Assembly (NCBI GenBank): GCA_003551705.1
Contig: PUNJ01000020.1
Span: 17,128 to 81,127 of the forward strand
DNA: 64,000 nucleotides
DNA from: Chloroflexota bacterium
GTDB lineage: Bacteria; Chloroflexota; Dehalococcoidia; UBA2247; RBG-13-53-26
Reading direction: 5' to 3'
The stretch's first letter is position 1, and every line of letters begins with the position of its first letter. The notes under the pieces were generated by a model, which searched no databases, was not told the origin of the DNA, and saw only the letters and a program-made list of their open reading frames with translations. Both the position numbers and the translations under genes were made by a program. This document shows positions 20,392 through 37,743 of this stretch, piece by piece.

Positions 20392-20573
20392 AAAGACTCC
20401 TTCCGGATTTGCGCGCGCAGCATCTGGGGAACCATGCAGGGATAGGCGGCGTACAGGCTTTTGCAACACCTCACAACTATTTGTTATTATAGTAAACGTT
20501 CACGCACCCTTTCAAATCTGCGTGGCAAACTGTCAGCCTTGAGTCCGGTGATCCAACATAGCTAGGAGGAAGT

Positions 20574-22175: not shown

Positions 22176-22190
22176 AGAAGGAGTAATCGC

Positions 22191-22601
22191 ATGGACTCAA
22201 AGAACGTCAAGATATTAATGGCCAAACCCGGTCTGGAAGGGCACTGGCGCGGTCTGATTGCAGTCAGCAGCGCCTTCAGGGATGCAGGTTTCGAGGTCAT
22301 TTACGGCGGCAGTATGCGGCCAGCAGAGATCGCCACGACAGCCGCCCAAGAAGATGTGGATATTGTCGGACTGAGCATACTCTGTTCAAACTATATGCCA
22401 CTCACTTCCCAGACCATTGAACAACTCAAGGCCCACGGCAAGGGTGACGTCATGGTCCTGCTTGGCGGTATAATCTACCCCGACGACTTCACTGAACTTC
22501 AAAAGATGGGAGTAAGCGGCATCTTCATACCGGGAACACCACTCGAAGACATCGTCAAATTCGTAAATGACAGGATACCTGAACTCAAGAAAGTTGCATA
22601 G
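22191..22601 (+). CDS. B12-binding small subunit of split acyl-CoA mutase; copy 1
   Basis: 136 aa. KILMAKPGLEGHWRG cobalamin-binding loop (ExHxxG variant of DxHxxG). Rossmann-like remainder. GGAG SD. Confidence 0.85.
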   Translation: MDSKNVKILMAKPGLEGHWRGLIAVSSAFRDAGFEVIYGGSMRPAEIATTAAQEDVDIVGLSILCSNYMPLTSQTIEQLKAHGKGDVMVLLGGIIYPDDFTELQKMGVSGIFIPGTPLEDIVKFVNDRIPELKKVA

Positions 22602-22653
22602 CCCTTGGGCAATAAGTAGGTCCAGAGTTTGGTAACTCTCAAGGAGCGTGAAT

Positions 22654-24249
22654 ATGGCAAGCGAAGATAAGGTGTTTTCACTATCTGGGATCCCAATCAA
22701 GGACCTCTACACGCCGGACGATGTGAAGACCATTGACTATGACCGAGACCTTGGCTTGCCGGGACACCCCCCCTATACACGAGGCGTCTACGCCACGATG
22801 TATCGCGGCCAGCTTTGGACGATACGCCGTTTGAGCGGTTTCAATACACCTGAAGAGACTAACAAGCTTTACCGGGAGGAATACGAACTGGGGCAGACCG
22901 GGCTTTCGGTAGCCCCAGACATCTCTACCGTCGTCGGCATGGATGCGGATGATCCAAGAGTTTCCGCAGACATCGGACATGCCGGCGTACCCATGAGTTC
23001 CATTGAGGACGTCGAAGCCACCTTCAACGGCATCCCCATTGAGAATGTGTCCACCTATCTGGCAGACAGGTGTGGGGCAGTTACCACGGCCATGTATTTC
23101 GTCATGGCGGAGCGGCGCGGCCTTGATCTCAAGGGGCTCCGTGGTACAACCGCCAATGACATGTTGAGCTTCAGCGTGCCCAGCCTCGTGAACCAGACGC
23201 CTCCGCAAGCATATCTCCGCTATGCCGTCGATTTCATCGAATGGTGTTGCGAGCACGCTCCTAGATGGAACCCCGTATCCTTTGACTCATACAACTCCAG
23301 GGATTGCGGGCTCGACGCTGTACAAGAGCTTGGCATGTTGCTGGCCACTGCCATTCAGTACATGGAGGAAGCGAAGAGGCGAGGCAGGGTACCCCTGGAC
23401 AAGTTCGTCCGGCGAGTCTCCTTCGATACCGGTTTGCACAACGACTTTTTTGAGGAAATCGCCAAACTCCGGGCCGCCCGACGTATGTGGTACAAGATCG
23501 TCCGTGACCGCTATGGCATAACGGACCCCAAATGCGCTCTGTTTCGCGTTCACTGCCAGAGTTCGGGCTCGACTCATACAACTCAGGAACCGTTGAATAA
23601 CCTCATTCGCATAGCCTATCAGGTAATGGCAGGAGCACTGGGTGGTGCCCAGTCCATCCATGCCAATGGCTATGACGAAGGCATCTGTCTGCCAACCGAG
23701 CAATCGATGCTGCTCTCGATTCGCACAGAGCAAATAGCGGCCCTGGAAGCAAACATTGGAAACACCATCGACCCTCTTGGGGGCTCCTACTACGTAGAAT
23801 CCCTGACCAACGAACTTGAGGAACGCTCCTGGCAATATGTCAAGAAGATAGAAGACATGGGAGGGATGGCCGAGGCCATGAGTTCCGGTTGGCTATACAA
23901 GGAGTACAGGGATGCCATGATCGAGCACGAGAGGAAGGTGGCCACGGGTGAACTTCCCATAGTCGGCGTGAATAGGTTCCGGCTGGAAAAAGAGCCCTAT
24001 GAGGTCCCCATCTTTAGATGGGACCCGGAAGCTCCGTACAAACAGATTGAGAAACTCAAGGCATTCAAGCAGAAACGAGATAAGGACAAGTTGACGGCAT
24101 CCCTGGAGAACCTTGAAGCTGTTACCCGCCGGGGCGAAAACGTGTATCCGGCCGTAATGGACGCGATCAGGTGCAATGCCACTCTTGGCGAGATATCGGA
24201 TGTGCAATTGAAAGTTTACGGCCTCTGGCGCCGGCCGCTGGCAATCTAA
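22654..24249 (+). CDS. B12-dependent acyl-CoA mutase large subunit; copy 2 (paralogue of 20574..22175)
   Basis: Same architecture and motifs as copy 1 (YTRGVYATMY...). Start set at the ATG 7 nt after an AAGGAG SD. Confidence 0.85.
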   Translation: MASEDKVFSLSGIPIKDLYTPDDVKTIDYDRDLGLPGHPPYTRGVYATMYRGQLWTIRRLSGFNTPEETNKLYREEYELGQTGLSVAPDISTVVGMDADDPRVSADIGHAGVPMSSIEDVEATFNGIPIENVSTYLADRCGAVTTAMYFVMAERRGLDLKGLRGTTANDMLSFSVPSLVNQTPPQAYLRYAVDFIEWCCEHAPRWNPVSFDSYNSRDCGLDAVQELGMLLATAIQYMEEAKRRGRVPLDKFVRRVSFDTGLHNDFFEEIAKLRAARRMWYKIVRDRYGITDPKCALFRVHCQSSGSTHTTQEPLNNLIRIAYQVMAGALGGAQSIHANGYDEGICLPTEQSMLLSIRTEQIAALEANIGNTIDPLGGSYYVESLTNELEERSWQYVKKIEDMGGMAEAMSSGWLYKEYRDAMIEHERKVATGELPIVGVNRFRLEKEPYEVPIFRWDPEAPYKQIEKLKAFKQKRDKDKLTASLENLEAVTRRGENVYPAVMDAIRCNATLGEISDVQLKVYGLWRRPLAI

Positions 24250-24264
24250 AAAGGGGTGAAATTC

Positions 24265-24672
24265 ATGGTCAAAGACAGGGTGAAGATATTGATGGCAAAG
24301 CCCGGCCTCGAGGGACACTGGAGGGGCATGACCATAGTCAGTAGCGCCCTGCGGGATGCTGGATATGAGGTAATCTACGGGGGAAACATGCTGCCGCCGG
24401 AGATCGGCCAGACCGCAGCCCAGGAGGACGTGGACATGGTAGGGCTGAGCATCCTCTCGTCAAATTACATGAGACTGGTAAGTGAAACTCTGGAGGAACT
24501 CCGCAAGAACAACAAGGACGACGTAACAGTATTGCTGGGCGGCATCATCTGGGAATCGGACTTCGCGGCTCTCAAACATATGGGGATTGCCGGAATATTC
24601 ACACCGGGTACGCCCTTGCAGGACATCGTCGCCTTTGTCAATACAAAGACCGCAGCGCAGCCCAGCCGGTGA
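24265..24672 (+). CDS. B12-binding small subunit; copy 2
   Basis: KILMAKPGLEGHWRG identical to the copy-1 loop. Start at the ATG preceded by AAAAAGGGG. Confidence 0.85.
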   Translation: MVKDRVKILMAKPGLEGHWRGMTIVSSALRDAGYEVIYGGNMLPPEIGQTAAQEDVDMVGLSILSSNYMRLVSETLEELRKNNKDDVTVLLGGIIWESDFAALKHMGIAGIFTPGTPLQDIVAFVNTKTAAQPSR

Positions 24673-24764: not shown

Positions 24765-25083
24765 GTAGTTGCCTTGGATGGCCTAGGGTCAGTGAGGAAA
24801 ACGCTTAGTGCCGATTACGCCTAAAGAACAAAGCCGCATTGTGGGCGTCGCCCACAGCAATAGATGGCGATCTGAGATCGCAGACCGAACCAACCGGGCA
24901 GATTCCCTAGACCAGCACCATACGGTTTGCCCATTATCCACATCATCTCTTACTCCGTTGTCGCGATTGATGCCTGGCATCAATTCAACGGTGCATTTAG
25001 CAATGCGATTACACCTTTCTTGATGAGGGCCTTTCCATAGGTCCAAGATTGATCCCGACAGCCAAGTGAAGGAGGGAATTACG

Positions 25084-25548
25084 ATGAGTATCAAGGATCC
25101 AGCAGGGTTAGCCCAATATCTTCGAAGCGGCAAGCGAGTGCTGATCATGACCGGAGCGCTCTGTGATGAAATCAATTTCGATGGCAAGAGCCTGTTGGAC
25201 TATGCTGCCGACATTGCCAAGAGGACCAAAGCTCCAGTAGCTGCCACAGGCAATACGGTCAACGGCCTCCGAGAGCGAGGCGTGGAGACACACAAGTCCT
25301 GGGCGGCTGAGATCGTAAATTTCATGAAATATGATTGGCACAACCCGCTCATGGCTGACAAACCCGAGGTGCTGCTTTTGATAGGATATAGCCCGACTAT
25401 GGCAGCGAACTTAGCCTCTTCCGTAAAGGATGCGGAAACCGTCGCCTTGGGCGGCAGCTACATCGAGGAAGCCACGTATTCTCTTCCCAGTGTCAAGTCT
25501 TTCTCTGAGTGGCAGCAAGAGTTAACGGAGTTAGTCAAGGCACTATAG
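25084..25548 (+). CDS. CdhB-like protein (epsilon subunit of archaeal-type CO dehydrogenase/acetyl-CoA synthase)
   Basis: 154 aa. Rossmann-like pattern KRVLIMTG...APVAATGN...EVLLLIGY and a C-terminal ELVKAL, resembling ACDS epsilon subunits. Start at ATG after GAAGGAGGG. Confidence 0.5.
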   Translation: MSIKDPAGLAQYLRSGKRVLIMTGALCDEINFDGKSLLDYAADIAKRTKAPVAATGNTVNGLRERGVETHKSWAAEIVNFMKYDWHNPLMADKPEVLLLIGYSPTMAANLASSVKDAETVALGGSYIEEATYSLPSVKSFSEWQQELTELVKAL

Positions 25549-25554
25549 CAGGAA

Positions 25555-26124
25555 ATGGATAACAAGTCCGAGACGCAGAAGAGCAGGATCAGCGAAGGTG
25601 AATTCCGCCATTACGTTTTCGAGCGGCAGGAATTGCTGGATGAAACGCGACGCTTTCTGGAACAGGCGGGATATGAATGGAAGCCTGTAGACCATGTGGG
25701 ATTTGTCCAGCCCGATTTCCGAACCAAGCGTAAGGCAGAAGGGCGCCGTTTCGAAATAGCAGGCCTGCTCCGGGAGAGCATGGATGAAGCCGTTGAGGCA
25801 CTCATCAAGCTATCTGCGATACGAGCTGTAAATGCAAACATCGATTGCGTGCTGGTTCTGCCGCCCATAAATGAGTATGTGCTCATCGAATTCCTCATGG
25901 ATGAACGAGGGCGCTGGTACTTCGGGATGAAAGATGCCAAGATATCGATGTGGTTTGTCAATCCGGATAACAGGACCACAATGTGTGTCATTGGCGGTCC
26001 AAGCGATAGAGAATTCTTAAAACACTTCTTCATGAGCCAGGCCAATTTCGATGAGTACATGTCCATGCGCGCACTACACCTCATCCAAGAAAGACTTATG
26101 GCTGAGGAAGAAGAGGACGACTAG
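25555..26124 (+). CDS. hypothetical protein (no recognisable motif; acidic C-terminus)
   Basis: 189-aa ORF in operon context between the cdhB-like and SDR genes. Confidence 0.5.
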   Translation: MDNKSETQKSRISEGEFRHYVFERQELLDETRRFLEQAGYEWKPVDHVGFVQPDFRTKRKAEGRRFEIAGLLRESMDEAVEALIKLSAIRAVNANIDCVLVLPPINEYVLIEFLMDERGRWYFGMKDAKISMWFVNPDNRTTMCVIGGPSDREFLKHFFMSQANFDEYMSMRALHLIQERLMAEEEEDD

Positions 26125-26177
26125 TTTGAGGGGGGACCCAATTAATCTTACCCTCACAAATAACAAGGAGGTAAGTG

Positions 26178-27077
26178 ATGGGCAAACTTGATGCTAAGAA
26201 CGCAGTAGTTACCGGTGGCGGCCGGGGCATTGGCCGAGCAGTAGCCTTGGAATTGGCCAAGAATGGCGCCAAAGTAATAGTTTCCGACTTGGGCGGATCG
26301 AGGAGCGGCGAAGGTGCGGATGCTTCTGCAGCGGAGGAAGTCGTTGCCGAGATCAAACAGGCCGGGGGCACGGCAATGGCCAACCATGAGTCTGTTACCG
26401 ATTTCGTGGCGGCTGAAAGAATAGTCAAGACCTGCGTAGATAGTTTCGGCAGCATAGATATACTGGTCAACTGCGCCGGCATTCTGCGCGACCGCATGTC
26501 CTGGAACATGTCCGAAGAGGAATGGGATGCTGTTATCGCCGTACACCTCAAAGGTATGTTCAACATGATCCGGCATGCTGGCCGATTTATGAGGGAACAG
26601 AAGTGGGGGCGCATCGTCAGCACCACCTCTGATGCCTGGAGAGGCAGTCCAGGACAGCCGAACTACAGTGCCGCCAAGGGGGGCATAGTCAGCCTCACTC
26701 GCACACTGGCCGGTGAACTCGGCAAATACAATGTCACAGCAAACGCCATCGCACCGTTTGCAGCCACCAGGATGACCATGGACGAGGAGGTTATCGCCAG
26801 GTTCAAGAAGTACTATGAATCGGGCATGATGACAGAGGACCAGTATGATGAACTGGTCAATATGCCCGGTCCGGAGTACCTGGCTCCCGTGGTTGCGTAC
26901 CTTTGCACCGAAGAAGCCGCCGCCATCAACGGCAAGGTTGTCGGATGCGGTGGCGGACGGGTCTCTCTGTATTCTGACCCGGTCGAAATTCGCGGTCTTT
27001 TCAGGGACCATAGACAATTCGGTGCCTGGACAGTTGAAGAACTGATCAAGCTCGTGCCGAAGACTCTTCTTACATAG
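26178..27077 (+). CDS. MFE-2-type (R)-specific 3-hydroxyacyl-CoA dehydrogenase (SDR family)
   Basis: Near-collinear with the dehydrogenase domain of peroxisomal multifunctional enzyme 2: VTGGGRGIGR, SDLGG, VNCAGILRDR, GRIVSTTS, catalytic NYSAAK. AAGGAGG SD. Confidence 0.8.
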   Translation: MGKLDAKNAVVTGGGRGIGRAVALELAKNGAKVIVSDLGGSRSGEGADASAAEEVVAEIKQAGGTAMANHESVTDFVAAERIVKTCVDSFGSIDILVNCAGILRDRMSWNMSEEEWDAVIAVHLKGMFNMIRHAGRFMREQKWGRIVSTTSDAWRGSPGQPNYSAAKGGIVSLTRTLAGELGKYNVTANAIAPFAATRMTMDEEVIARFKKYYESGMMTEDQYDELVNMPGPEYLAPVVAYLCTEEAAAINGKVVGCGGGRVSLYSDPVEIRGLFRDHRQFGAWTVEELIKLVPKTLLT

Positions 27078-27276
27078 TAAGGAAGGTAAATAACCAAATA
27101 CGCTGTACAGCTCCCTGGTCAGAGGTTGACCATTCTACCGAGGAGGTAGAATAATGGTTTAGTTTTACCAGGTCACTCACGCCGGAGACGTGAGCCTGGC
27201 CCGATCAAGGTGAATCAGGGCATGTGACCTAGTGGCCAGCAGTGAAGAAGAGGAGCATATCTTAAAGGAGGTCAAT

Positions 27277-28641
27277 GTGAGCGTCGGAGAAGATCCAGAA
27301 AAGAATGTTCCGCCCGGAAGAGAATTTCAATTGCCCACAGACCCCGATTATCTCTGGGACGGGTTAAAGGACATAGGACTGGGCATAAGATGGGTAGCCG
27401 AAGTTAAGAAGGCCGACATGCAAATCGAGCTTTCCGGACCCAAGTGGGAGTACAAGAGCTACACCATCATGGAAGTGATTGAAGAGCCTGGCATAGTAAG
27501 GGACGGCATAGTAACACTGGTTGGTCCCGATCTGCACGAGGTGGAACCCGGTACTTCGGTGCCCTCTGCCTGGGACATCAAGGTCTACGGCCCTGGCATC
27601 GGCCAGCGGCATCGCGAGTATCTGGAACGGCAAATGGCCATGGCTCTGCACGGAATTGAGGGATACATGGCCTTTGGTTCTTTCCAGGCACCCTGGATGA
27701 GGATCAGCAAGGCTGTGGCGGGGCGGCTTACGTTCGCCAAGCTGTGCCAGATAATCCATGCTTATATCAAGACCGTGGTCCCTCAAGTGGAAGCCATGGA
27801 GTTCCGCTGGATAATCGGCGCCCCCGAAATCGGCGGCCTCGACCTGATAGAGCCGTTATATCGCAGGGGTATTCAAAGGTTGAAGGCCCAGGAACAGTCG
27901 GTTGCCCTTGAAGACGAAGACGTCGACCTGTTCTACGGGTGTACAATCTGCAAATCACTGGCCCCCAACCACGTATGTGCCATTACCCCCAGCCAGATAC
28001 CCTACTGCGGCATTCTGTCCTACAACGGCGCCCAGGTTACGGTCGAGCTGGACCCCGAGGGCTACATATTCCCGATGCCAAAGGGCGAGTGCAAGAACTT
28101 CCTTCAGGGCAGCTACTCCGGCGTTGATGCAGCAGTGTATGAAAGATCAAACCATCAGGTAAAGAGGGTTAATATCTTCAGCGCTATCAGGTACCCCACC
28201 ACCAACTGCGGATGCTTTGAGGGCGCTGCATTCTATATACCTGAAGTAGACGGTCTCGGCGTTGCCATCCGTCGCTATATCGGTGTGACACCTCTCGGCA
28301 TAAAGTTCTCCCGTTTGGCAGGTACCATATCAGGCGGCTCGCAGAACCATGGCTACAAAGGCGTGTCGATGCGCTCAATGCAAAGCAAGACTTTCCTCAA
28401 GGGAGACGGGGGCTGGAACAGAATCGTCTGGATGCCCGCTGACCTGAAAGAAGAAGTAGCCGAATACATTCCCGAAGAGATCTACGACAAAATAGCCACC
28501 GAGCAGGACACCATCGACCCGGTCGAACTCAAGGAGTTCCTGAAGAAGAAAGGTCACCCCGTAGTTGAGAAATTCTGGAAAAATGGTGAACCTCAATCGT
28601 TGAATGTACCTCTCCCAGGAGGGGAGTGGGCCGACGAATAA
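27277..28641 (+). CDS. cdhC: acetyl-CoA synthase (A-cluster) subunit, archaeal CdhC type; copy 1
   Basis: A-cluster ligand pattern C-x2-C-x8-C-x9-C followed exactly 67 residues later by the Ni-binding C-G-C (TNCGCFEG). About 455 aa, as in archaeal beta subunits lacking the bacterial AcsB N-domain. GTG start 5 nt after AAAGGAGG. Confidence 0.8.
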   Translation: MSVGEDPEKNVPPGREFQLPTDPDYLWDGLKDIGLGIRWVAEVKKADMQIELSGPKWEYKSYTIMEVIEEPGIVRDGIVTLVGPDLHEVEPGTSVPSAWDIKVYGPGIGQRHREYLERQMAMALHGIEGYMAFGSFQAPWMRISKAVAGRLTFAKLCQIIHAYIKTVVPQVEAMEFRWIIGAPEIGGLDLIEPLYRRGIQRLKAQEQSVALEDEDVDLFYGCTICKSLAPNHVCAITPSQIPYCGILSYNGAQVTVELDPEGYIFPMPKGECKNFLQGSYSGVDAAVYERSNHQVKRVNIFSAIRYPTTNCGCFEGAAFYIPEVDGLGVAIRRYIGVTPLGIKFSRLAGTISGGSQNHGYKGVSMRSMQSKTFLKGDGGWNRIVWMPADLKEEVAEYIPEEIYDKIATEQDTIDPVELKEFLKKKGHPVVEKFWKNGEPQSLNVPLPGGEWADE

Positions 28642-28656
28642 ATTGGGAGGTCGAAA

Positions 28657-28872
28657 ATGGGAGATAACCTTTGCGGAGTATGTCAGAAGAAGGAAACAGA
28701 AGCTACATGCAAAGTCTGCGGCGTGGCACTGTGCGCTGAATGTGTCCGTGAAGTCAGCGTAGAAAATCCAGGCCAACGGGTGCTTGGTGTGCTGACCAGT
28801 CCTCTCAAGTCAGGCACGAAGAAACAGAAGGTCTGTGCGACCTGTATGAAGGAAGTCGATTTCGTCGATTAG
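28657..28872 (+). CDS. 4xCxxC zinc-ribbon miniprotein; copy 1
   Basis: 71 aa with CxxC pairs at residues 6/9, 18/21, 26/29, 60/63. GGGAGG SD. Conserved paralogue at 32907..33128 in the same relative position. Confidence 0.65.
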   Translation: MGDNLCGVCQKKETEATCKVCGVALCAECVREVSVENPGQRVLGVLTSPLKSGTKKQKVCATCMKEVDFVD

Positions 28873-28955
28873 GTGCTTCCGCTTGCTGCTGAAAGACTTC
28901 CGTTCGTATGCGTTAACGCTTGGGCTAAGTATCGATAAGTCGGAGGATAAGAGCT

Positions 28956-31445
28956 GTGAAAGATAATAACAGAATTGCTCACGTCGGGTCCCTGGAAGTC
29001 AACATAGGCGACGTAGTTCGCGACCCCAGGGGGCACGAAGACGAAATCGTTGAAATACTGGAGAACGATTTTGTTGAAGGTCGACATAGCAACTTCGGTG
29101 GATGGATTACCCTCCTGCCGGATGCCATTGATCTGGCGGAACTCGATTATTCATACCTTAACAAATACCCGCCTCTCTATTCAGAGAGCGAGAGCACTTG
29201 CCGGGACTGCAGTCTGGGAGATTGCGATCTTAGCCAGCGTGCGGGAAAATGCGGACTCAGCGCCGAATCCTTCCAGGGGAGACTGAGCCTGCGAAAGGCC
29301 TGCCGCGGTTGCATGACTCAAATTACTGCAACCCGTCAGTTGCTTAATTACGCCCTCAAACGCTGGCCGGAGGATACCCCAGTCTCCATGGGCGAGATCC
29401 TTAGCATATCCGATAGTGCCCCAGCTATCACCGTTCTCTCCGGCATCTTGATCAAGACCATAAAGGACCTCAACAGGGCCCAGTCCTATGCGGAGCAGCA
29501 GCTAGCCAGGCTGTTCCAGGCCAGTTTCAACGGGACCGGCACGGCGGTTGAATTCGAGAGCATGGTCTTGCACACCGGCTCGGTACTATTGCTGACCATG
29601 GGCGTAGCAGAGATGCTGAAGATCTCCTGCTACGGATTCATCAGTGCAGCAAACGAGGAGTTGGAAGTCATCGACCAGTTCCCAGCCCCCAGCGTGAAAG
29701 GCGGATGGGCTTCCGTCGACAACAGCAAACCGTCGATTGCATTCGAAGGAGATGACTTTCTTCCCGCCTGGTGCGCACTGGACTACATGAAACAGCAAGA
29801 CCTGCTCGGTCAGATAGAGATCTGCGGCCTGGGCTCAGCCGGCGATGACATCGCCAGGTTCCATGACCAGTGCCGCGTTCTGGGTCCAGCCGTGAGAGCC
29901 ACCAAGGCCATCCGAAACGGTGTATTCAACGTAGTCGTCCTCAGCCCGGGCTGTACTCCGCAAGATCTGCTCGGTGAGGTCGAGCGAGCCGGCAGCAAGG
30001 CCATATGGGTTGGCAGCAACGGCATCGGCAATTTGCGCGACAGAACGGACGAGACCGTCGATAGCATAGTTGCCGCGCTGGCTGCCGGAGAGAAGGCCGT
30101 CTGGGTCCGCGATGTGGAAAAGGCAGGCGAGGTGGCTGTCAAGGCTGCACAGACCATCGCCAAATCCAAGTCCAGCCTGACGTCCGAAGATGACGCTGTC
30201 AAGGCTGCCGCAAGCCACGACAAGAACTGTGACCTCTGTACCCTGGTCTGTCCTCTTAATCTTCCTGTTGCCAAGGCCGTAAAGGGACTGGAAACAGGCG
30301 ATTGGACAGCGATGCTTGAAGTGGAGAAAGCGTGCAACTTCTGCGGCAAGTGTGAAGATGCGTGCCCCAGCAAGTTGGAATTACGTGACATCATTGTCGC
30401 CGCCGAAAGAAGACAGGCTGACAAAGACAAATTCGTTATGCGACCGGGTCGCGGTCCAATTTCGATCACCGAATTGCTGCAGTCAGCGTTTGCCGTGGGT
30501 TGGGGCAGCATTCCAGCCATGGTTACCCTATTCGGGTGCGGTGACGCTCCGCAGGAAGAGATAGCCTGGATGGCTGATGAATTGTTGAAAGGTGGATGCA
30601 TGGTCTTCACTGCAGGGTGTGGCGCCTCCGATATAGCGCACTCCTACAGCGAAATGAAGAAGAAATACGTATTCGAGGAATACGCAGCCACCTGCGCAGC
30701 CAGAAACCTGGTGAACTGCGGCAGTTGCTCGGCCATGTGTCATGCACTGCCCATGTACCTGATGTTGAGGCCCTCCGGAGGGATTCCGCTGTACGGCGGA
30801 ATTCCACCCCTGGGTGATTCCATCAATCTTGGCGGCGCCCAGTCATTAATAATATGGGGCTCCATGTCCGACCGCATGTACGCCATGGCAGCGGCCTGGG
30901 CACGACTCGGTTCCACCGTTATCGTGGGTCCCTCATCATCGCTCAAGTGGCCTCGCTCCCTGGTGGGCAACAGGTATGATCGCAGCCGCTGGTGGGTACA
31001 TCACGGTGAGACGGCAAAGAAGCGCGAAACTGAGCCCGTCCCCGAACACCTCATCATGCCGGTTGAGACAAAAGAGGAAGCGCTGACCATGCTGGCGCGG
31101 TCGGTCCTGACCGTGAAGGACTATCGTGAAAGCCGCGCCACGCACCTGGAAGTCTTGATTGATTACTATGACCGCTTCTATAATGAGTTGCCGGCTGACT
31201 GGCCGTTGCTGGTAAGGTCTGACTTCGAACTGCCACCCCGCTACAGAAGATACATGGTCAGATTGCTGGGCGAGGAATATGGTTGGGAAACCGAAGGAAT
31301 GCGGATCAAGCAGGCCAAGCACCGGGACGGCAAGCTCATGACACTGTCAGAGTTTGCGGCCAATTACGGCATGGAGCAAGGCATCTACAGTACCCGGCTG
31401 AAGAGCCAGTTGCCCCTACGCCTCAGAGACAAGGTAGAGGAATAG
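28956..31445 (+). CDS. cdhA: CO dehydrogenase catalytic subunit-like protein, archaeal CdhA type with ferredoxin-like insertion; copy 1
   Basis: 829 aa. N-terminal CxxCxxxxC...C Fe-S motif. Inserted 2x[4Fe-4S] ferredoxin segment (NCDLCTLVCP / CNFCGKCEDACP) as in archaeal alpha subunits. C-terminal Cys cluster (GCG..., NCGSC). Sits in a cdhC/cooC context. Confidence 0.6.
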   Translation: MKDNNRIAHVGSLEVNIGDVVRDPRGHEDEIVEILENDFVEGRHSNFGGWITLLPDAIDLAELDYSYLNKYPPLYSESESTCRDCSLGDCDLSQRAGKCGLSAESFQGRLSLRKACRGCMTQITATRQLLNYALKRWPEDTPVSMGEILSISDSAPAITVLSGILIKTIKDLNRAQSYAEQQLARLFQASFNGTGTAVEFESMVLHTGSVLLLTMGVAEMLKISCYGFISAANEELEVIDQFPAPSVKGGWASVDNSKPSIAFEGDDFLPAWCALDYMKQQDLLGQIEICGLGSAGDDIARFHDQCRVLGPAVRATKAIRNGVFNVVVLSPGCTPQDLLGEVERAGSKAIWVGSNGIGNLRDRTDETVDSIVAALAAGEKAVWVRDVEKAGEVAVKAAQTIAKSKSSLTSEDDAVKAAASHDKNCDLCTLVCPLNLPVAKAVKGLETGDWTAMLEVEKACNFCGKCEDACPSKLELRDIIVAAERRQADKDKFVMRPGRGPISITELLQSAFAVGWGSIPAMVTLFGCGDAPQEEIAWMADELLKGGCMVFTAGCGASDIAHSYSEMKKKYVFEEYAATCAARNLVNCGSCSAMCHALPMYLMLRPSGGIPLYGGIPPLGDSINLGGAQSLIIWGSMSDRMYAMAAAWARLGSTVIVGPSSSLKWPRSLVGNRYDRSRWWVHHGETAKKRETEPVPEHLIMPVETKEEALTMLARSVLTVKDYRESRATHLEVLIDYYDRFYNELPADWPLLVRSDFELPPRYRRYMVRLLGEEYGWETEGMRIKQAKHRDGKLMTLSEFAANYGMEQGIYSTRLKSQLPLRLRDKVEE

Positions 31446-31517
31446 ATTTCGGCCCGATTGTTACGTCGATAAAGTAATCGTTCTGAAACCCGGTTACAAC
31501 GTGGGAAGGGGGAAAGC

Positions 31518-32885
31518 ATGGCTGTACCTGAAGAAGAAGCAGTCTCTAAATTGCCGGCCGGAAGGATCTTTCAGTTACCCACAGATCTGGACCATCTCTG
31601 GGACGGCCTGGACGACATAGGCCTGGGACTGCGATGGCTCAGCGAGGTCAAGAAAGCCGATATGCACCTTGAGTTGGGGGGGCCCAAATGGGACTACAAG
31701 ATGTTCTCCGTCTTCTACATTGAAGAGGATCCTGAGAAGGTCCCGGATGGCCAGGTCAAGCTCATAGGGCCGGATATCCCAGAAGTCAAGCCGGGAACTT
31801 CCTTGCCGGGGGGATTCACCATCAGGATCTACGGCAAAGAACTTACACAAGCCCATCAGGGTTATGTTTCACGCCAGATTGGCACCGCCCTTCAGGGTCT
31901 TGAAGGTTTCATGCTCTTCGGCTCACCTGACAGTCTCTGGATAAGGATAAACAAAGACGTGGCCGACAGGCTCACCTTTGCAAAGATATCGCAATTTTGT
32001 TATGCGACTGCCAAGACCCTGGTACCTCAAGTTGACGCCGTGTCCTTCTTCTGGGTAATAGGAGATCCGGAGGTAGGCGGTGTAGAGATGGTCAACCCCG
32101 TTTTCGAATGGGCTTCCGAGAAGTTTAAAGTCATCAGTGCCAAGGAACTGTACGACGACGAAGATGTAGACATGTTCTACGGCTGCACCATCTGCAAGTC
32201 ACTGGCGCCTAACCACGCATGCGTGCTGACACCCAGCGCCCTGCCTTACTGCGGTATCATCGGCTATGACTCTGCCAAGGTAACAGCCGAAATGGACCCC
32301 GAGGGCTACGTATTCCCCATCCCCAAAGGCGAATGTCTCGACCCAGAAGCTGGTCACTATACCGGCGTGGACGAGGCTATCTGGGAGAAATGCAATCATT
32401 TGGTGAACCGCGTCCACATCTACAGCAGTATCAAGTACCCGACCACGAATTGCGGGTGCTTCGAAGCCGCTTCCTTCTATATTCCTGACGTGGACGGCAT
32501 CGGTCTCGCCATGAGACGTTATACGAAAATGACCCCGCTTGGCATCAAATTCTCAACCCTGGCTGGCACCATTTCCGGGGGTGCCCAGAACCATGGGTTC
32601 AAGGGGCTTTCCATAGCAGGTATGTCCAGCCCGAACTTTCTCAGAGGAGATGGTGGCTGGAACCGGGTTGTCTGGATGCCGTCCGACCTCAAGGAGGAAA
32701 TAGCGGATGTCATACCTGAGGAGCTTTACGACAAGTTAGTCACGGATGAAGAGACTGTGGATGCCGCTGAGCTCAAGCAATTACTTATTGAACGCGGACA
32801 CCCTATAACGGAGGTGTTCTGGAAGAACGGGGAACCGCAACCGTTGCAGATACCTCTTCCAGGCGAGGACTGGCCCGAGGAATAA
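31518..32885 (+). CDS. cdhC: acetyl-CoA synthase (A-cluster) subunit, CdhC type; copy 2
   Basis: Same C-x2-C-x8-C-x9-C ... CGC (TNCGCFEA) arrangement. Paralogue of 27277..28641. GGGGG SD. Confidence 0.8.
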   Translation: MAVPEEEAVSKLPAGRIFQLPTDLDHLWDGLDDIGLGLRWLSEVKKADMHLELGGPKWDYKMFSVFYIEEDPEKVPDGQVKLIGPDIPEVKPGTSLPGGFTIRIYGKELTQAHQGYVSRQIGTALQGLEGFMLFGSPDSLWIRINKDVADRLTFAKISQFCYATAKTLVPQVDAVSFFWVIGDPEVGGVEMVNPVFEWASEKFKVISAKELYDDEDVDMFYGCTICKSLAPNHACVLTPSALPYCGIIGYDSAKVTAEMDPEGYVFPIPKGECLDPEAGHYTGVDEAIWEKCNHLVNRVHIYSSIKYPTTNCGCFEAASFYIPDVDGIGLAMRRYTKMTPLGIKFSTLAGTISGGAQNHGFKGLSIAGMSSPNFLRGDGGWNRVVWMPSDLKEEIADVIPEELYDKLVTDEETVDAAELKQLLIERGHPITEVFWKNGEPQPLQIPLPGEDWPEE

Positions 32886-32906
32886 TTCCTGATCGGGGGT
32901 TGAATC

Positions 32907-33128
32907 ATGTCGGAGAATCTTTGTGGAGTTTGCCAGAAGATGGCCGCTCAATGGACCTGCCAGGAGTGCAAAGTGGCACTATGCGAGCAGTGTGTAAAGG
33001 AAGTGCGCATAGAGTCCACCAGACCAGGTCAGAGGATGATGGGAAGGGTTACGAGCCCCATGAAGTCAGGGGTGAAGAAGATCAAGGTCTGTGACAAGTG
33101 CTTCAGGGAAAAGGAGTTTCTGGGATAG
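32907..33128 (+). CDS. 4xCxxC zinc-ribbon miniprotein; copy 2
   Basis: 73 aa. Cys positions conserved with the 28657..28872 miniprotein. Confidence 0.65.
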   Translation: MSENLCGVCQKMAAQWTCQECKVALCEQCVKEVRIESTRPGQRMMGRVTSPMKSGVKKIKVCDKCFREKEFLG

Positions 33129-33141
33129 CAGCCGAGGAGGC

Positions 33142-35628
33142 ATGATGGATGATAACAAGTATGCTCAAGTCGGCCCTCATCGGGTTGACATTGGTGAGGT
33201 AGTCCGCGACCCACGCGGTATTGAGGATATCGTCAAAGAAATCCTTGAAAAGGACTTCGTTGAGAGTCGCTACGCTCAGTTTGGAGCCCACCTTAATATT
33301 CTGCCTGACGCTGCTGACATTGCCGACTGGGACCATACACTCCTGTCCAGGTATGAACCACTGTATATGCTTTCGGCGCATATTTGCAGGGATTGCACTT
33401 CAGGTCCCTGTAACCTGAATAGTGCCAGCGGGGTGTGCGGACTGGAAGGAGATGTCCTCAAGGCAAAGCTAAGCCTCCGAAAGGCTTGTCGCGGCTGCCT
33501 GGTGCAGATGATCACCAGCCGTGATATTGTCAACTACTCACTGAAGATCTTTGGTCAGGACCACCCCTGCAGCATGGGCGAGTTGCTCACCATGTCCGAT
33601 CACTGCCCGCCCATAGGCACACTCAGCGGTATTCATGTTAAGTCGCTTAACGACTTGGACCGTGTGCTCGCCTATGCCGAATCACAGTTGAGCAAGCTCT
33701 TCCAGGCAAGCTTCACCGGCACGGGAACGGTCAACGATTTCGAGAGCATGGTCATGCACGCCGGCTCCGTCCTGCTGCTGGCCATGGGCGTGGCAGAAAT
33801 GGCCAAGGTCTCTTGTTTCGGGTTTGTTTCAGCCGCCAACCACCAGATAGACCAGCTCGACAACTTTCCGCCCGCCACCTCCGCCGTGGGATGGGCCGCT
33901 ATTGAAAAGGACAAACCCGTGGTGGCCTTCGTCGGCGACAGCTTCCTTCCGGCATGGACCGCAATCCAGCATATGCGGGAAAATGAACAGGTAGAAGCAA
34001 TTGAGGTATGCGGAGTAGGACCGGCAGCGGACGATATAATCAGATTTTATGACAAAGGCAGGGTTATCGGTCCCATGACCCGAGCGGCCCGTGCCATACG
34101 GAACGGTGTCTTTAACGTGGTAGTAGCCGGACCGGGCTGCATACCGCAAGACCTGTTCACAGAATCCGAGCGGGCCAACAGCAAGTTCATCTGGACCGGC
34201 CCCAATGGCGTAAGCAAACTCAAGGACAGAACTGACGACTCCGTCGACAAGATGGTAGCTGACTTGCTAAAGGGAGAGTCGGGAATCTGGATCAGGGATG
34301 TTGAGAAAGCCGGTCAAGTCGCCGTTAGGCTGGCAGGTTCGCTTGGTCCCAACAAGAGTGTATTCGCTCTGGACGACCAAGATGCGGCAAGGCTTGCCTC
34401 GAAGTGCTCTGAGAAGTGCGACCTGTGTTTTTACGCCTGCCCCAACAGCTTGCAGGTCCCCAAAGCTGTAAGAGGGATTGCCGGAGGAGATTGGGCAACC
34501 ATGGCCGGGTTGGAGAAGGGTTGTTATTTCTGTGGCAAGTGCGAGGAAGCCTGTCCTGAAAACGTCCAGGTCCGCGATCTTGTGGTCGCCGCTGAAAGGA
34601 AGAAGGCAGAACAAGACAACTCCGTGATGAGAGCAGGCAGAGGACCCCTCCCCCTGACTGAGATCCTCCAGTCCGCCTTCTCCATGGTCTGGGGCAATGC
34701 ACCCGGCATCGTGGTCCTGGCAGGTTGCGGCGACGCCGATCGCGATGAAATCGGCTGGTTGGCCCACGAATTGACCCGTCGCAACTGCATTGTCTTTCTG
34801 GCCGGATGCGGCGCTGCCGAAATCGCCCGCAATTACCAGGACAAGAAGGGCAAGCATATATTCGAGCTCTACACATCCTCCATTGAGCCGAGATCCCTAA
34901 TTAACTGCGGTGGATGCGCAGCGATTTCCCTGGCCAACAACATGTACATGTACGCCAGGGCTGCTGGAGGAATACCGCTATATGGTGGTATCCCAGAGGT
35001 AGGCGAGGGCTCTTTGTACACCACCTTCTCACTCTTGTTATGGGGTTCTCTGCCGGAGAGAATGCATGCTGTTGCAGCAGGCTACGCCAGACTGGGCGTC
35101 AGGGTGGTGATGGGCCCCAACTCGGGCTGGAACTGGGGCAGATATCTGCCAGGTAACCGCTACGATAGAAGCAAATGGTTCGTGTACCACGGCGATGACG
35201 GCCGCAAGCGAGAGACCGAGCCCATACCTGAGCATCTTATTATCCCTGTCGAGACCAAGGAAGAGGCCCTGACCATGATCCCGAGGACGTTCTTCAGCAC
35301 ATCGGAGATGCGGGAGGGCCGCGCCGCCCGCTTGGACTTCTTCTTCGAACTCTACAGGTTGTTCTATGGCGAGCTGCCCGAGGACTGGCAGCTCTTTATA
35401 CGCTCCCATCTTGATATACCGACCAGGCACAGGATCCGCTTGATCAAGCTGCTTGACGAGGAGTTCGGCTGGGAAGGGGCTGGCATAAAACTCAATAAGG
35501 CCAGGAACAGGGACGGCAAGTTGCTGACGCTTTCGGAATTCAATACCAGCTACGGTATGGAGCTGGGCCGGTACCACTGCCGTTTGGAGAGACTGCTGCC
35601 CAAACACCTGCGCAAGAAGGACGGGTAA
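33142..35628 (+). CDS. cdhA: CO dehydrogenase catalytic subunit-like protein, CdhA type; copy 2
   Basis: Paralogue of 28956..31445 with the same N-terminal Cys motif, ferredoxin-like insertion (KCDLCFYACP / CYFCGKCEEACP) and C-terminal Cys cluster. Start at ATG just after GAGGAGG. Confidence 0.6.
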   Translation: MMDDNKYAQVGPHRVDIGEVVRDPRGIEDIVKEILEKDFVESRYAQFGAHLNILPDAADIADWDHTLLSRYEPLYMLSAHICRDCTSGPCNLNSASGVCGLEGDVLKAKLSLRKACRGCLVQMITSRDIVNYSLKIFGQDHPCSMGELLTMSDHCPPIGTLSGIHVKSLNDLDRVLAYAESQLSKLFQASFTGTGTVNDFESMVMHAGSVLLLAMGVAEMAKVSCFGFVSAANHQIDQLDNFPPATSAVGWAAIEKDKPVVAFVGDSFLPAWTAIQHMRENEQVEAIEVCGVGPAADDIIRFYDKGRVIGPMTRAARAIRNGVFNVVVAGPGCIPQDLFTESERANSKFIWTGPNGVSKLKDRTDDSVDKMVADLLKGESGIWIRDVEKAGQVAVRLAGSLGPNKSVFALDDQDAARLASKCSEKCDLCFYACPNSLQVPKAVRGIAGGDWATMAGLEKGCYFCGKCEEACPENVQVRDLVVAAERKKAEQDNSVMRAGRGPLPLTEILQSAFSMVWGNAPGIVVLAGCGDADRDEIGWLAHELTRRNCIVFLAGCGAAEIARNYQDKKGKHIFELYTSSIEPRSLINCGGCAAISLANNMYMYARAAGGIPLYGGIPEVGEGSLYTTFSLLLWGSLPERMHAVAAGYARLGVRVVMGPNSGWNWGRYLPGNRYDRSKWFVYHGDDGRKRETEPIPEHLIIPVETKEEALTMIPRTFFSTSEMREGRAARLDFFFELYRLFYGELPEDWQLFIRSHLDIPTRHRIRLIKLLDEEFGWEGAGIKLNKARNRDGKLLTLSEFNTSYGMELGRYHCRLERLLPKHLRKKDG

Positions 35629-35631: not shown

Positions 35632-36126
35632 CTAGTCGTCGTCATCTCGAGGTTCAGCCTTGACGAGATCAAGTGCCTCGAAGGGACACCTGTCGGCACA
35701 GACGCCGCAGAGATCCAGACTCTTGTCCGACCGCTTGCAACTTGGGGCATTGATTACGTGCAGGCTGCCGTTGATGACCTGGAGCACCTCAGGTACCGTT
35801 TCCCGCTTGGAGAGCCGGCCTCCTATAGTGACCGTTGTCAACGCCCTGCCGCATGCCAGCACACAGTCCCCACAGCCTGTACACCTTGTCCGGTCTATGA
35901 CATGATCAGTGCCCGGTATCCTCTCGCCCTCTCCCAGAAACCCCTTCAAGGTCTTCAAGGCATCGGCTTGTTCCGGCTCCTGAAGAGGAGGACAATCATT
36001 CAATGTCCGGTCCCGGCTGATGAGATCGAAGGCAAAGGAATAGCAGGTTGGGCAGCCGCATAGCTTGCAATTGGTCCGCGGCAGGAAGCGGTAGATGTGA
36101 AGCGGTTGGACTTCTTTCCTACTCAT
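35632..36126 (-). CDS. poly-Fe-S protein (N-terminal CxxxCxCxxC plus 2x[4Fe-4S] ferredoxin domain)
   Basis: Motifs CTGCGDCVLACG and CGVCADRCP. Start set at the ATG that overlaps the upstream stop (ATGA coupling) with a G-rich SD. Last gene of the minus-strand operon. Confidence 0.55.
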   Translation of the reverse strand: MSRKEVQPLHIYRFLPRTNCKLCGCPTCYSFAFDLISRDRTLNDCPPLQEPEQADALKTLKGFLGEGERIPGTDHVIDRTRCTGCGDCVLACGRALTTVTIGGRLSKRETVPEVLQVINGSLHVINAPSCKRSDKSLDLCGVCADRCPFEALDLVKAEPRDDDD

Positions 36127-36517
36127 GATCCGCCCCAGGCAGGATTTCGTTAAGGGGAGTCGGTGCTTTCGTCGACACTGCTGCAACGACGCCTATTAAG
36201 CTCAGACCGGCCGCAGTCATGTGCTCCACGTCCGCCAACAGGTAACCCGTGTAAAGGCTGGCCGGCATGACACCTGTGCCTGCCTCAATCGTCTTCTCTC
36301 CTCTTGCTTCAACAACGATATGGGAAACCTCGCTTCGCAACGAAATTGCTCCCCCATCGGCTAAGCCCATCTTCTTCATGTCTGCCGGCGATAATCTGAC
36401 AATGGCAGCCAGTTTCTGGTACGCATCACCCCAGCCATGCTTCTGCCTGGCAATATCTAAGTGGATGTCGCTATAAGTGAGTATCGTCAAGGGCAGTCCG
36501 TCCATTTCCGGGGTCAT
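36119..36517 (-). CDS. FwdD/molybdopterin-dinucleotide-binding-domain-like small subunit
   Basis: 132 aa, size and position typical of FwdD-type C-terminal molybdopterin-binding domains split from FwdB. GGAGGG SD. Stop/start overlaps on both sides. Confidence 0.4.
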   Translation of the reverse strand: MTPEMDGLPLTILTYSDIHLDIARQKHGWGDAYQKLAAIVRLSPADMKKMGLADGGAISLRSEVSHIVVEARGEKTIEAGTGVMPASLYTGYLLADVEHMTAAGLSLIGVVAAVSTKAPTPLNEILPGADHE

Positions 36518-37743
36518 CCCAGTCCCTCCAGAAGTCGCTGCAACACCACGGTCTCGGCTGGATACGGTCCTGCGCTGAAGCGTGTTAGGTCTGCCTTCTC
36601 GCCGTCCATACGCAGTACCGCGCCCTCGCTTTCGAGGCCGGCTACAGCAGTAGTAATCCGAATAGCCGCTCGCTCAGAGGTAAGAGTAGTGAAACTATCT
36701 ACGCAGATTATGTCCGCTTGTGAGAGCCTGGACATCAACGCCTGCGGAAATACCGCATAGGGGTCAGAGCCCACACACAGAAGGACGTCGGGAACAGCCC
36801 CTTTCACCTGCTCAGTGAAAGAGCACTCAGGTCCATGACGAACGGTTCCAGCAAAACTCACACTCCCCACAGAGCCGGTCTCCTCAAACAGCTCCCTCCC
36901 CAGGCCCATCAAATTCGGTTCCGATAACATGGGTATCACCGCAACCTTGGCCCCCTCGACAGAATTGGCCTTTGCCACCATCTCGCAAAAGACGTTGGTG
37001 TCTCCTCCCAGTGAGCGGCCCAAACCGTCACCGCAGAAAACCACAGCAAATCCCGCCTTCATGAGCAGTTCCCGGAACTGCCGGGCCTCCGGTAAGTCAT
37101 CGCCACGCTCGAGCACAGCCTCCAGAAAGGCCAGGTCGCCACCGGGCTTTAGCTTGAACTTCGGCCGGCACAGGGAGGTGAACTCGCTCTCCCGGATATC
37201 CACACTGCTGAGGACGACGTTCTTCGGTTGCCACCCTGAGGGATCGTAATCGCTGTAGCAATAATACGTGAATTTGGAAAGATGCCGCGGATGGGTGTGG
37301 GCCGGATTTGACCCCCAGTACACCAGCAGACCGGCGCTATCCTTTATGTCAAGCAGAGAACAGGAAGGGAGATTCTTCTCAAGGATGGACTTCAAAATCT
37401 CTCCAAGTCCCAGCGAGAGGCTGCTGTCCAATACGGCTCCCAACCGGCGGGCTATTTCGATGGCGGTCTTCTGTGCCTCGATGGTGGAACTCCCAAGACC
37501 GTAGATAAGCGGATTCCTTGCGTATCTAAGCAGGTGTGTTGCTTCCGTTACGGCTTCCTCCAGGGAAACGTCCCGCTCTCCCACACGCGTGCGGCCCCTG
37601 CGTGCGGGGTCTCGGCTCGAGGCAAAGAGGGCAGCTCCCCTGGCACAGATATTCTCTATAAGCTTGAGAGTACTCCCGGCCTCTATCCGGATATCATCGC
37701 AGAAACAACTGCAACCGCTGCACGTCAAGGTTATCTTGGACAT
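36514..37743 (-). CDS. FwdB-like molybdopterin oxidoreductase subunit (formylmethanofuran dehydrogenase subunit B family)
   Basis: 409 aa. N-terminal CSGCSCFCDD, i.e. the CxxCxxxCDD Fe-S motif characteristic of FwdB/FmdB. Molybdopterin-oxidoreductase-like remainder. Confidence 0.55.
   Translation of the reverse strand: MSKITLTCSGCSCFCDDIRIEAGSTLKLIENICARGAALFASSRDPARRGRTRVGERDVSLEEAVTEATHLLRYARNPLIYGLGSSTIEAQKTAIEIARRLGAVLDSSLSLGLGEILKSILEKNLPSCSLLDIKDSAGLLVYWGSNPAHTHPRHLSKFTYYCYSDYDPSGWQPKNVVLSSVDIRESEFTSLCRPKFKLKPGGDLAFLEAVLERGDDLPEARQFRELLMKAGFAVVFCGDGLGRSLGGDTNVFCEMVAKANSVEGAKVAVIPMLSEPNLMGLGRELFEETGSVGSVSFAGTVRHGPECSFTEQVKGAVPDVLLCVGSDPYAVFPQALMSRLSQADIICVDSFTTLTSERAAIRITTAVAGLESEGAVLRMDGEKADLTRFSAGPYPAETVVLQRLLEGLG

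Follow-up and report, generated by a model that had tools for sequence, protein, structure and literature searches.

A conserved CODH/ACS-like gene set in Chloroflexota with intact A-cluster subunits, altered CODH-like subunits and no neighbouring corrinoid protein gene

We analysed a stretch of 64,000 nt (the window; contig PUNJ01000020.1, positions 17,128-81,127, assembly GCA_003551705.1) from a Chloroflexota bacterium (Dehalococcoidia; UBA2247; RBG-13-53-26), which harbours genes resembling the archaeal CO dehydrogenase/acetyl-CoA synthase (CODH/ACS). Nine closely spaced genes on the plus strand (25066-35628), all open reading frames (ORFs) at the positions given for them in a preliminary description of this DNA, include two tandem triplets (27232-35628), each encoding a CdhC-type ACS β-subunit, a miniprotein with four CxxC pairs (Zn-ribbon) and a CdhA-like protein of about 830 amino acids (CdhA'). 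Ahead of the triplets lie, in this order, a weak CdhB homologue (CdhB'), a gene for a hypothetical protein of 189 amino acids (X189) and a short-chain dehydrogenase/reductase (SDR). The ORFs together with profile matches (Pfam, TIGRFAM/NCBIfam) bear out the two triplet copies claimed in that description, and TIGR00315 and PDB entry 3cf4 do the same for the CdhB-like gene upstream, as do PDB matches of MFE-2 type for the (R)-3-hydroxyacyl-CoA dehydrogenase; the hypothetical gene is likewise present. We then compared the window with 8 loci from metagenome-assembled genomes (MAGs), 7 contigs with precomputed Pfam labels and 78 metagenome loci; the search for corrinoid protein genes covered 93 loci, each with at most 10 kb of flanking sequence. 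In this comparison a convergent minus-strand operon (35632-41751) and the gene of a further protein, X279 (44884-45669), also emerge as part of the system (Table 1).

Table 1. Genes of the CODH/ACS-like system and its acyl-CoA context in the window.
Feature	Coordinates	Strand	Assignment and evidence
Possibly associated context	14628..18933	+	PaaK-like acyl-CoA ligase 14628-15920; DUF35/thiolase/HMG-CoA-synthase-like trio 16264-18933; Pfam and NCBIfam
MeaB	19417..20469	-	MeaB-type G-protein chaperone for B12 mutases; PF03308 E 4.5e-83
Acyl-CoA mutase 1	20574..22601	+	Large subunit 20574-22175 (PF01642 E 2e-156); B12-binding small subunit 22191-22601 (PF02310)
Acyl-CoA mutase 2	22648..24672	+	Large subunit 22648-24249 (PF01642 E 2.6e-163); B12-binding small subunit 24256-24672 (PF02310)
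CdhB'	25066..25548	+	160 aa, divergent ACDS ε-subunit homologue
X189	25555..26124	+	189 aa, AF2093-like, PD-(D/E)xK nuclease-like fold, no Pfam family
SDR	26175..27077	+	MFE-2-type (3R)-hydroxyacyl-CoA dehydrogenase-like; PF00106 E 2e-46
CdhC-1	27232..28641	+	ACS β, intact A-cluster motif; TIGR00316 358 bits
Zn-ribbon 1	28657..28872	+	71 aa, four CxxC pairs, B-box-like cross-brace; weak B-box/RING matches
CdhA'-1	28956..31445	+	TIGR00314 443 bits, E 1e-132; signature DCGS|CCCC|R (Asp / relocated Cys / Ser / Arg)
CdhC-2	31518..32885	+	Second ACS β; TIGR00316 359 bits; 58% identical to CdhC-1
Zn-ribbon 2	32907..33128	+	73 aa, four CxxC pairs; 56% identical to Zn-ribbon 1
CdhA'-2	33145..35628	+	TIGR00314 478 bits, E 1e-143; signature DCGP|CCCC|R (Asp / relocated Cys / Pro / Arg)
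Small Fe-S protein	35632..36186	-	184 aa; CdhE/RnfB-type N-terminal Fe-S domain and 2x[4Fe-4S] ferredoxin; PF04060 E 3.6e-12, Fer4
FwdD-like	36119..36517	-	Molybdopterin-dinucleotide-binding β-barrel; PF01568 E 7e-7; NF042908 FwdD E 5e-6
FwdB-like	36514..37743	-	TIGR03129 268 bits vs cutoff 328, full-length match; lacks catalytic Cys-His
ChlD-like AAA+/VWA protein	37750..39975	-	PF00092 VWA, PF01078
CooC-type Ni-insertion ATPase	39953..40717	-	PF01656 CbiA; deviant Walker A GKGGVGKT; GCYC (CxC) nickel motif
MoxR/ChlI-type AAA+ ATPase	40720..41751	-	PF07726, PF01078, PF07728; Cys-rich insert
X279	44884..45669	+	Second AF2093-like protein, X189 paralogue

The nearest relatives are Chloroflexota/Dehalococcoidia MAGs with 66-71% identity, consistent with the bacterial host that had been proposed. 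The two modules are 53-58% identical to each other, while each shares 66-89% identity with its own orthologues in other MAGs; they are therefore old paralogues. The central claim of the preliminary description, a non-canonical archaeal-type (Cdh-like) set in a bacterium with no corrinoid protein genes nearby, is supported by these data; its interpretation as a whole is supported in part.

Both CdhC proteins match PF03598 and PF19436 and score narrowly above the family cutoff of the cdhC profile TIGR00316 (355.95 bits). They contain the motifs CTICKSLAPNH(V/A)C...YCG and TTNCGCFE (in CdhC-1, CTICKSLAPNHVC...YCG and TTNCGCFE), and the A-cluster ligands, i.e. four Cys for the [4Fe-4S] cluster and Cys-Gly-Cys for two Ni, are complete. 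The A-cluster Cys motifs are intact in all 61 CdhC relatives examined. In the alignment with the archaeal chain of PDB 9c0s_E, which is matched from its residue 16, residues 57-453 of 469 of CdhC-1 and 43-433 of 455 of CdhC-2 are covered; both proteins thus have 40-55 extra N-terminal residues (about 55 in CdhC-1) and lack the archaeal C-terminal extension. Only one residue of the CO alcove, Phe512 of the Moorella thermoacetica ACS or Phe195 of methanogen CdhC, is present in the two-domain CdhC-type subunit, and its equivalent is Leu or Ile in 52 of the 61 relatives, both window copies included. Mutation of this Phe lowers the affinity for methyl-Co(III) (PMC11321310). Among more distant ACS-β homologues, six proteins (P0245-P0248, P0265 and P0291) carry the [4Fe-4S] Cys motif (CTRCRSFSLAHAC...) without the Cys-Gly-Cys nickel motif, and judged by these motifs may represent an ACS-like family without a Ni-Ni site.

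Alignment of the CdhA' proteins with the solved α-subunits of acetyl-CoA decarbonylase/synthase (ACDS) and with a canonical relative (P0071) reveals an altered active site. In both copies the C-cluster His is replaced by Asp and the catalytic Lys by Arg, while the Cys-Cys pair has become Gly-Ser in CdhA'-1 and Gly-Pro in CdhA'-2. A His-containing segment presumed to include the acid-base His (SAHAGHAAH in P0071) is replaced as well, and two D-cluster Cys are missing. Still present in CdhA' are all four Cys of the B-cluster, the inserted E/F ferredoxin domain and Cys2-5 of the C-cluster, i.e. four of its six ligands. These replacements, or an Asn variant of them, are shared by all of the roughly 170 relatives examined: the His position is Asp or Asn in all 65 divergent full-length database relatives (the three most distant matches being canonical) and in all 100 sequences from the window and the loci, and 94 of these 100 have a relocated Cys (EICGxG), placed three residues upstream of where the pair has been lost. 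Cys2-5 and the four B-cluster Cys are retained across the relatives, and the motifs GD[DSN]FLPAW and WGxxP[DE]RMYA are near-invariant, with EICGxG[PAS] and NCGxC strongly conserved as well. The strict conservation of this signature, together with the retained Cys2-5 and B-cluster Cys, indicates that the replacements reflect selection for a different metal site and not decay.

Both CdhA' proteins score far below the cutoff of the cdhA profile TIGR00314 (443 and 478 vs 781 bits). The preliminary description had made the CODH/ACS-like nature of the locus depend on a CODH profile match and on C-cluster ligands in the ~830-aa proteins; the CdhA profile is indeed matched, though below its cutoff, but two of the six ligands and the catalytic Lys are missing. 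For the same reasons terminal oxidation of acetyl-CoA by a CODH, which that description had considered, is not the straightforward reading. The start of CdhA'-2 is probably at 33145 rather than 33091 (giving 827 aa, as in database protein P0001), and the gene therefore does not overlap that of Zn-ribbon 2.

The altered site has a counterpart in the literature. In the motif table of Inoue et al. 2019 the bacterial Ni-CODH group A-4 is characterized by the lack of a D-cluster, Asp, Pro, four Cys, Arg in place of Lys, and E/F clusters, and the authors pointed out that bacterial clade-A CODHs occurring in clusters with ACS have incomplete active sites (PMC6344411). CdhA'-2 shows exactly the full A-4 signature, CdhA'-1 differs by having Ser instead of Pro at the Cys1 position, and the more distant relatives in our loci carry an A-6-like Asn signature. 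Beyond the motif table and the association with ACS genes, to which that paper is confined, the relocated Cys, the accessory genes and the absence of a corrinoid iron-sulfur protein (CFeSP) come from the present analysis.

Corrinoid protein genes are normally clustered with archaeal cdh and bacterial acs operons. A Pfam scan of the non-overlapped ORFs of at least 130 aa in the 64-kb window identified neither CdhD nor a full-length CdhE, nor any methyltransferase of the pterin type. To this extent the earlier statement that the window has neither CdhD/CdhE nor a methyltransferase gene holds, but a gene with an S-adenosylmethionine (SAM)-type methyltransferase domain is present (41910-42734), and the N-terminal Fe-S domain of CdhE occurs in the small Fe-S protein next to the second triplet. 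The latter matches the ACDS γ-subunit model NF003195 at positions 2-53 only and has neither a TIM-barrel nor a corrinoid domain. No CdhE-sized protein with a CdhE-type Fe-S domain is encoded in the 93 loci; all carriers of the domain have 100-300 aa, including the 32 of 32 homologues of the small Fe-S protein. The SAM-type methyltransferase gene sits between MoxR and X279 together with an acetyl-CoA hydrolase/transferase-GNAT fusion (42902-44833), in which the GNAT acetyltransferase domain is C-terminal; relatives of the system lack both genes.

The core genes MoxR, CooC, CdhC, VWA, Zn-ribbon, CdhA', CdhB', AF2093-like, FwdB/D-like and small Fe-S protein are shared by about 90 metagenomic loci. 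In distant lineages they form a single co-directional operon (L043, L053, L057, L071), for example in the order MoxR-CooC-CdhC-VWA-Zn-CdhA'-CdhB'-X189-FwdB'-FwdD'-FeS-X279 in L043, L057 and L071, in which the VWA gene is placed between CdhC and Zn-ribbon. Twelve loci offer 8 kb or more of sequence on either side; CdhC is found in 11 of them, Zn-ribbon and CdhB' in 10 each, X189, X279 and VWA in 9 each, CooC in 7, FwdB' and the Fe-S protein in 6 each and MoxR in 5. Thus, the notion of an enzyme made of α and β only, the other possibility raised in the preliminary description, is not borne out, as CdhB', the Zn-ribbon, two AF2093-like proteins, the FwdB/D-like pair, the small Fe-S protein and MoxR, VWA and CooC are conserved alongside. 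Nor is the arrangement unique: about 90 public metagenome loci share it, and two surveys make mention of the clade (PMC6344411, PMC13370988).

The four CxxC pairs are kept in 70 of 72 Zn-ribbon homologues, and the Zn-ribbon gene lies directly upstream of a CdhA' gene in 67 of 87 cases. CdhB' is matched by TIGR00315 with E 7e-9 and 35.8 bits, far below the cutoff of 101, and aligns over its full length with the ε-subunit in PDB 3cf4_G (E 4e-6); it is kept beside CdhA' in distant loci. For X189 and X279 a role as nucleases or as the remnant of a mobile element was considered and rejected, given their conservation in the operon across distant lineages and the lack of conservation at the (D/E)xK position. 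A literature search on AF2093 returned nothing useful.

In the minus-strand operon the FwdB-like protein has lost the catalytic residues of its relatives: the SVCHG segment of PDB 5t5i/8rja reads SLGLG, with Gly-Leu in place of the W/Mo-ligand Cys and the adjacent His. At this position Ser-Tyr is found in close relatives, and the Cys persists in about 10 of 29 relatives. The window protein retains the N-terminal Fe-S Cys motif. FwdA and FwdC genes are absent from the cluster. A working FwdBD CO2 reductase was rejected, since the catalytic Cys-His is missing in this genome. The ChlD-like VWA protein is a probable maturation or activation factor. In the MoxR-type ATPase the Cys-rich insert reads CPYHCDPQSPVCPRC and, from its composition, could bind metal.

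Upstream of the system two B12-dependent acyl-CoA mutases, 65% identical to each other, are encoded beside a MeaB gene; MeaB likewise neighbours the mutase in L015, L032, L035 and L036. Both large subunits clearly belong to the wider acyl-CoA mutase superfamily but do not have the substrate residues of methylmalonyl-CoA mutase sensu stricto. In that enzyme Tyr89 and Arg207 (P. shermanii numbering) are the residues that bind the substrate carboxylate; the former is Leu in both mutases, and at the latter position mutase 1 has Met/Glu and mutase 2 has Ser. The best solved relative of both is HcmA, a 2-hydroxyisobutyryl-CoA mutase (PDB 4r3u). The two proteins differ from it at the compared positions (Asp117, Gln208). 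Asp117, the hydroxyl-binding residue of HcmA, is Ala in both. We considered 2-hydroxyisobutyryl-CoA mutases feeding acetone carbonylation, prompted by the HcmA match and the adjacent (3R)-hydroxyacyl-CoA dehydrogenase, but do not favour them given the Ala at position 117 and the lack of a thiamine pyrophosphate enzyme in the cluster. The literature search on mutase specificity residues yielded nothing useful.

Of the 6 close-clade loci whose upstream sequence extends for at least 6 kb, 5 have a mutase, and the SDR, whose best PDB matches are the (3R)-hydroxyacyl-CoA dehydrogenase 2et6 (E 1e-86), 17β-HSD4 and MFE-2, is kept at the same position in Dehalococcoidia-type loci. The suggestion that the duplication reflects two specificities fits relatives with a single module and one mutase of the matching type, clearly in L015, where a type-1 module accompanies a type-1 mutase (74% vs 59% identity), and weakly in L009, where a type-2 module accompanies a mutase slightly nearer to type 2 (68% vs 65%). 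In several lineages (L011, L017, L043, L076, L082 and L083) a thiolase gene also adjoins the system, with DUF35 in L011, L017, L082 and L083 and with an HMG-CoA-synthase-like gene in L017, L043 and L076. The trio in the window resembles the archaeal thiolase-HMGCS complex; the trio of L017 is 62-83% identical to it and adjoins a type-2 module. The remainder of the window is rich in genes of acyl-CoA and amino-acid fermentation.

Compared with the ACDS complex (CdhABCDE; PDB 3cf4, 8riu, 9c0q-9c0t), the present system has in common a two-domain CdhC-type β-subunit with complete A-cluster ligands, an α-subunit of about 800 aa with B-cluster and inserted E/F ferredoxin domain, a weak ε homologue and a CooC-type ATPase. 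In contrast to ACDS, CdhA' has other residues in place of the C-cluster His, Cys-Cys pair and catalytic Lys and has no D-cluster, genes for the γ/δ corrinoid protein are absent, the gene order is β-Zn-α', and β carries an N-terminal instead of a C-terminal extension; in addition there are the Zn-ribbon, the AF2093-like, FwdB/D-like and small Fe-S subunits and the MoxR/VWA pair. The β-subunit has also been noticed elsewhere: a bioRxiv preprint of July 2026 describes a separate ACS clade with a structured N-terminal extension and without the prismane (A1) domain and the C-terminal extension, which occurs in Chloroflexota, Thermodesulfobacteriota, Myxococcota and Methanobacteria and clusters with an early-branching CdhA clade (PMC13370988). 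Compared by sequence features, the CdhC proteins of the window match this clade in their N-terminal extension and missing C-terminal tail. That study is restricted to phylogeny and covers neither function nor the active site of the CODH partner nor accessory genes; the named relatives found in our analysis are all Chloroflexota. A CODH scaffold with altered ligands and probably a different function is also known from clade B CODH (PMC13592312) and from the hybrid cluster protein (HCP), but these belong to other clades (CooS-type or HCP) and have no ACS β partner.

Taken together, we find a conserved multi-gene system that combines an intact ACS β-subunit with a re-wired CODH-like α-subunit and accessory and maturation proteins of its own, without a neighbouring corrinoid protein gene. 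The reading that we put forward, in which our confidence is evenly balanced, is that it represents a functional ACS-type system that acts on acyl-CoA without a corrinoid protein, and a member of a distinct, widely distributed family of CODH/ACS-like nickel-iron-sulfur enzymes whose triplet has been duplicated in the Dehalococcoidia-type lineage. In such a system the β-subunit would make or break the C-C and C-S bonds at the acyl-CoA carbonyl via Ni-bound CO, and the α'/ε' pair would supply or remove CO and/or electrons through the Fe-S chain. The alkyl fragment, methyl or larger, would be handled by non-corrinoid partners rather than by a corrinoid/pterin methyl branch. In the Dehalococcoidia-type lineage the acyl-CoA would be linked to the non-methylmalonyl B12 mutases, the (3R)-hydroxyacyl-CoA dehydrogenase and the thiolase, with each module paired with its own mutase. 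A more specific version, which we regard as improbable, has a corrinoid-independent A-cluster enzyme carbonylating or decarbonylating non-acetyl acyl groups, where each module would act on a different, probably branched, acyl-CoA that the partner B12 mutase linearises or supplies.

Several observations weigh against this proposal. The link with mutase and SDR is essentially confined to the Dehalococcoidia branch, as none of the 26 distant loci with upstream sequence has it and in L013 the mutase lies downstream; the linkage may therefore represent a catabolic island and not mechanistic coupling. The neighbouring thiolase genes, some of them with DUF35 or an HMG-CoA-synthase-like gene, point to plain acetyl-CoA as substrate or product. 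Outside the 64 kb analysed, the genome could also encode a corrinoid protein and a methyltransferase. The relocated Cys and the Asp could together re-form a cluster able to oxidise CO, in which case the system would be a more ordinary one. Finally, part of the system may be decaying in this genome, because its FwdB-like protein does not have even the Ser of its close relatives.

Two of these points meet in a conventional explanation, which we consider unlikely but of some weight: an ordinary Wood-Ljungdahl-type ACS or decarbonylase whose CFeSP, methyltransferase and methyl-branch genes lie elsewhere and whose variant α-subunit still interconverts CO and CO2, with the relocated Cys and the Asp as ligands of the pendant iron. 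This would agree with a β-subunit that narrowly passes the TIGR00316 equivalog cutoff and has all A-cluster ligands, with the four C-cluster Cys, the B, E and F clusters and the conserved extra Cys near the lost one in α', and with adjacent thiolase and SDR genes that would yield acetyl-CoA; moreover, Inoue et al. tied group A-4 to ACS gene clusters and suggested a Wood-Ljungdahl role (PMC6344411). It is difficult to reconcile with the complete absence of a CdhE-sized gene within 10 kb in about 90 loci and with the family-wide replacement of the catalytic Lys and the presumed acid-base His segment. The Phe tied to methyl-corrinoid affinity is also replaced in most members (PMC11321310). A further argument against it is that the family has extra subunits and a MoxR/VWA maturation pair of its own. 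Canonical CODH/ACS systems are not known to use such a pair.

A different possibility is that only β is catalytic. Zhuang et al. reportedly described in 2014 an incomplete Wood-Ljungdahl pathway in Dehalococcoides mccartyi, with an ACS but no CODH. By analogy with what has been proposed for that organism, β would cleave acetyl-CoA for C1 units or CO, and α' would serve as a scaffold or as an electron partner that reductively activates the A-cluster. The loss of pendant-iron ligands and acid-base residues from an α' that still keeps its B, E and F clusters is compatible with this, and D. mccartyi would provide a precedent within the Dehalococcoidia for ACS operating without a working CODH. The D. 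mccartyi system, however, reportedly uses the bacterial AcsB and a CFeSP and has no CdhA-like gene, whereas here an α-like subunit is kept and re-wired and no CFeSP gene is found in the clusters. Furthermore, the re-wired α' site is strongly conserved and a dedicated MoxR/VWA/CooC set travels with it, which argues for a real metal centre, and we rate the β-only explanation as distinctly unlikely. More improbable still is a complete departure from CoA-thioester chemistry towards another small-molecule redox reaction, in the way that the hybrid cluster protein relates to CODH, with the FwdB/D-like pterin module as a second catalytic site. The remodelled α' site, the new subunits of no assigned function and the FwdB-like position, a catalytic Cys in about a third of the relatives and Ser-Tyr in others as in oxo-transfer molybdoenzymes, would be in line with it. 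Against this, β keeps every A-cluster ligand and is always adjacent, and the neighbours are overwhelmingly acyl-CoA enzymes, i.e. mutases, thiolases, CoA ligases, CoA transferases and HGD-type dehydratases.

Among the enzymes of carbon fixation, CODH/ACS is considered to be one of the most ancient, and its mechanism is believed to need a fixed set of C-cluster ligands and a corrinoid protein as methyl donor. The family described here keeps the A-cluster but systematically swaps C-cluster ligands, never has an adjacent corrinoid gene and brings its own accessory and maturation proteins, in about 90 or more public loci. If acetyl-CoA is still its product, this would reveal another route for building the carbonyl branch and for feeding in the methyl group; if other acyl-CoAs are the substrates, the organometallic Ni chemistry found in biology would be wider, and carbonylation of non-acetyl groups would be the first case in biology in which Ni-catalysed carbonylation extends beyond methyl. 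The existence of the clade is not new, as it has been seen in two sequence surveys that proposed no function. In the literature that we searched there is no account of the family-wide active-site re-wiring with a relocated Cys, of the conserved set of about 12 genes, of the consistent absence of a corrinoid protein gene or of a duplication that is specific to the lineage and comes with paired acyl-CoA mutases. The list of conserved genes and the motifs offer a concrete target for work on expression and structure.

Further genes surround the system in the window. A three-subunit 2-oxoacid:ferredoxin oxidoreductase (6971-9413) lies immediately upstream of a 2-hydroxyacid dehydrogenase, which belongs to a Had-like set (9367-14413). 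This set combines the D-2-hydroxyacid dehydrogenase with a family III CoA-transferase and two subunits of an HGD-D dehydratase. Another HGD-D pair is located at 54371-56846, and neither has an activator ATPase gene next to it. Four family III CoA-transferase paralogues occur within the 64 kb, in the regions 13199-14413, 47545-50016 and 60550-61761, which suggests a broad organic-acid/acyl-CoA metabolism. Scans of the whole window for Rfam families, including riboswitches, and for tRNA genes gave no match.

In the other loci, neighbour families left unexplained are limited to at most eight loci each, the most frequent of them being a tungsten AOR, an HGD-type dehydratase subunit, DUF6125, a Liv-type binding protein and an ADP-forming acyl-CoA synthetase. 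Stand-alone type-2 modules are followed by an ORF of about 818 aa (L002 4526-6982, L003 5222-7666, L009 8083-10539, L014 13360-15096). We considered it as a further-diverged CdhA and rejected this, as it encodes an unrelated repeat-rich, β-propeller-like surface protein with a C-terminal transmembrane helix. HypA/HypB are encoded near type-2 modules in L009 and L014, an ADP-forming acyl-CoA synthetase in L003, L009 and L014, and a tungsten AOR in L002, L003 and L009. In a distant branch with 38-54% identity (L010, L029, L046, L052-L054, L064, L065) the gene of a single HGD-D-type subunit comes after the operon, with a PHP-domain protein ahead of it in L010, L053 and L054. DUF6125 proteins recur in seven other loci.

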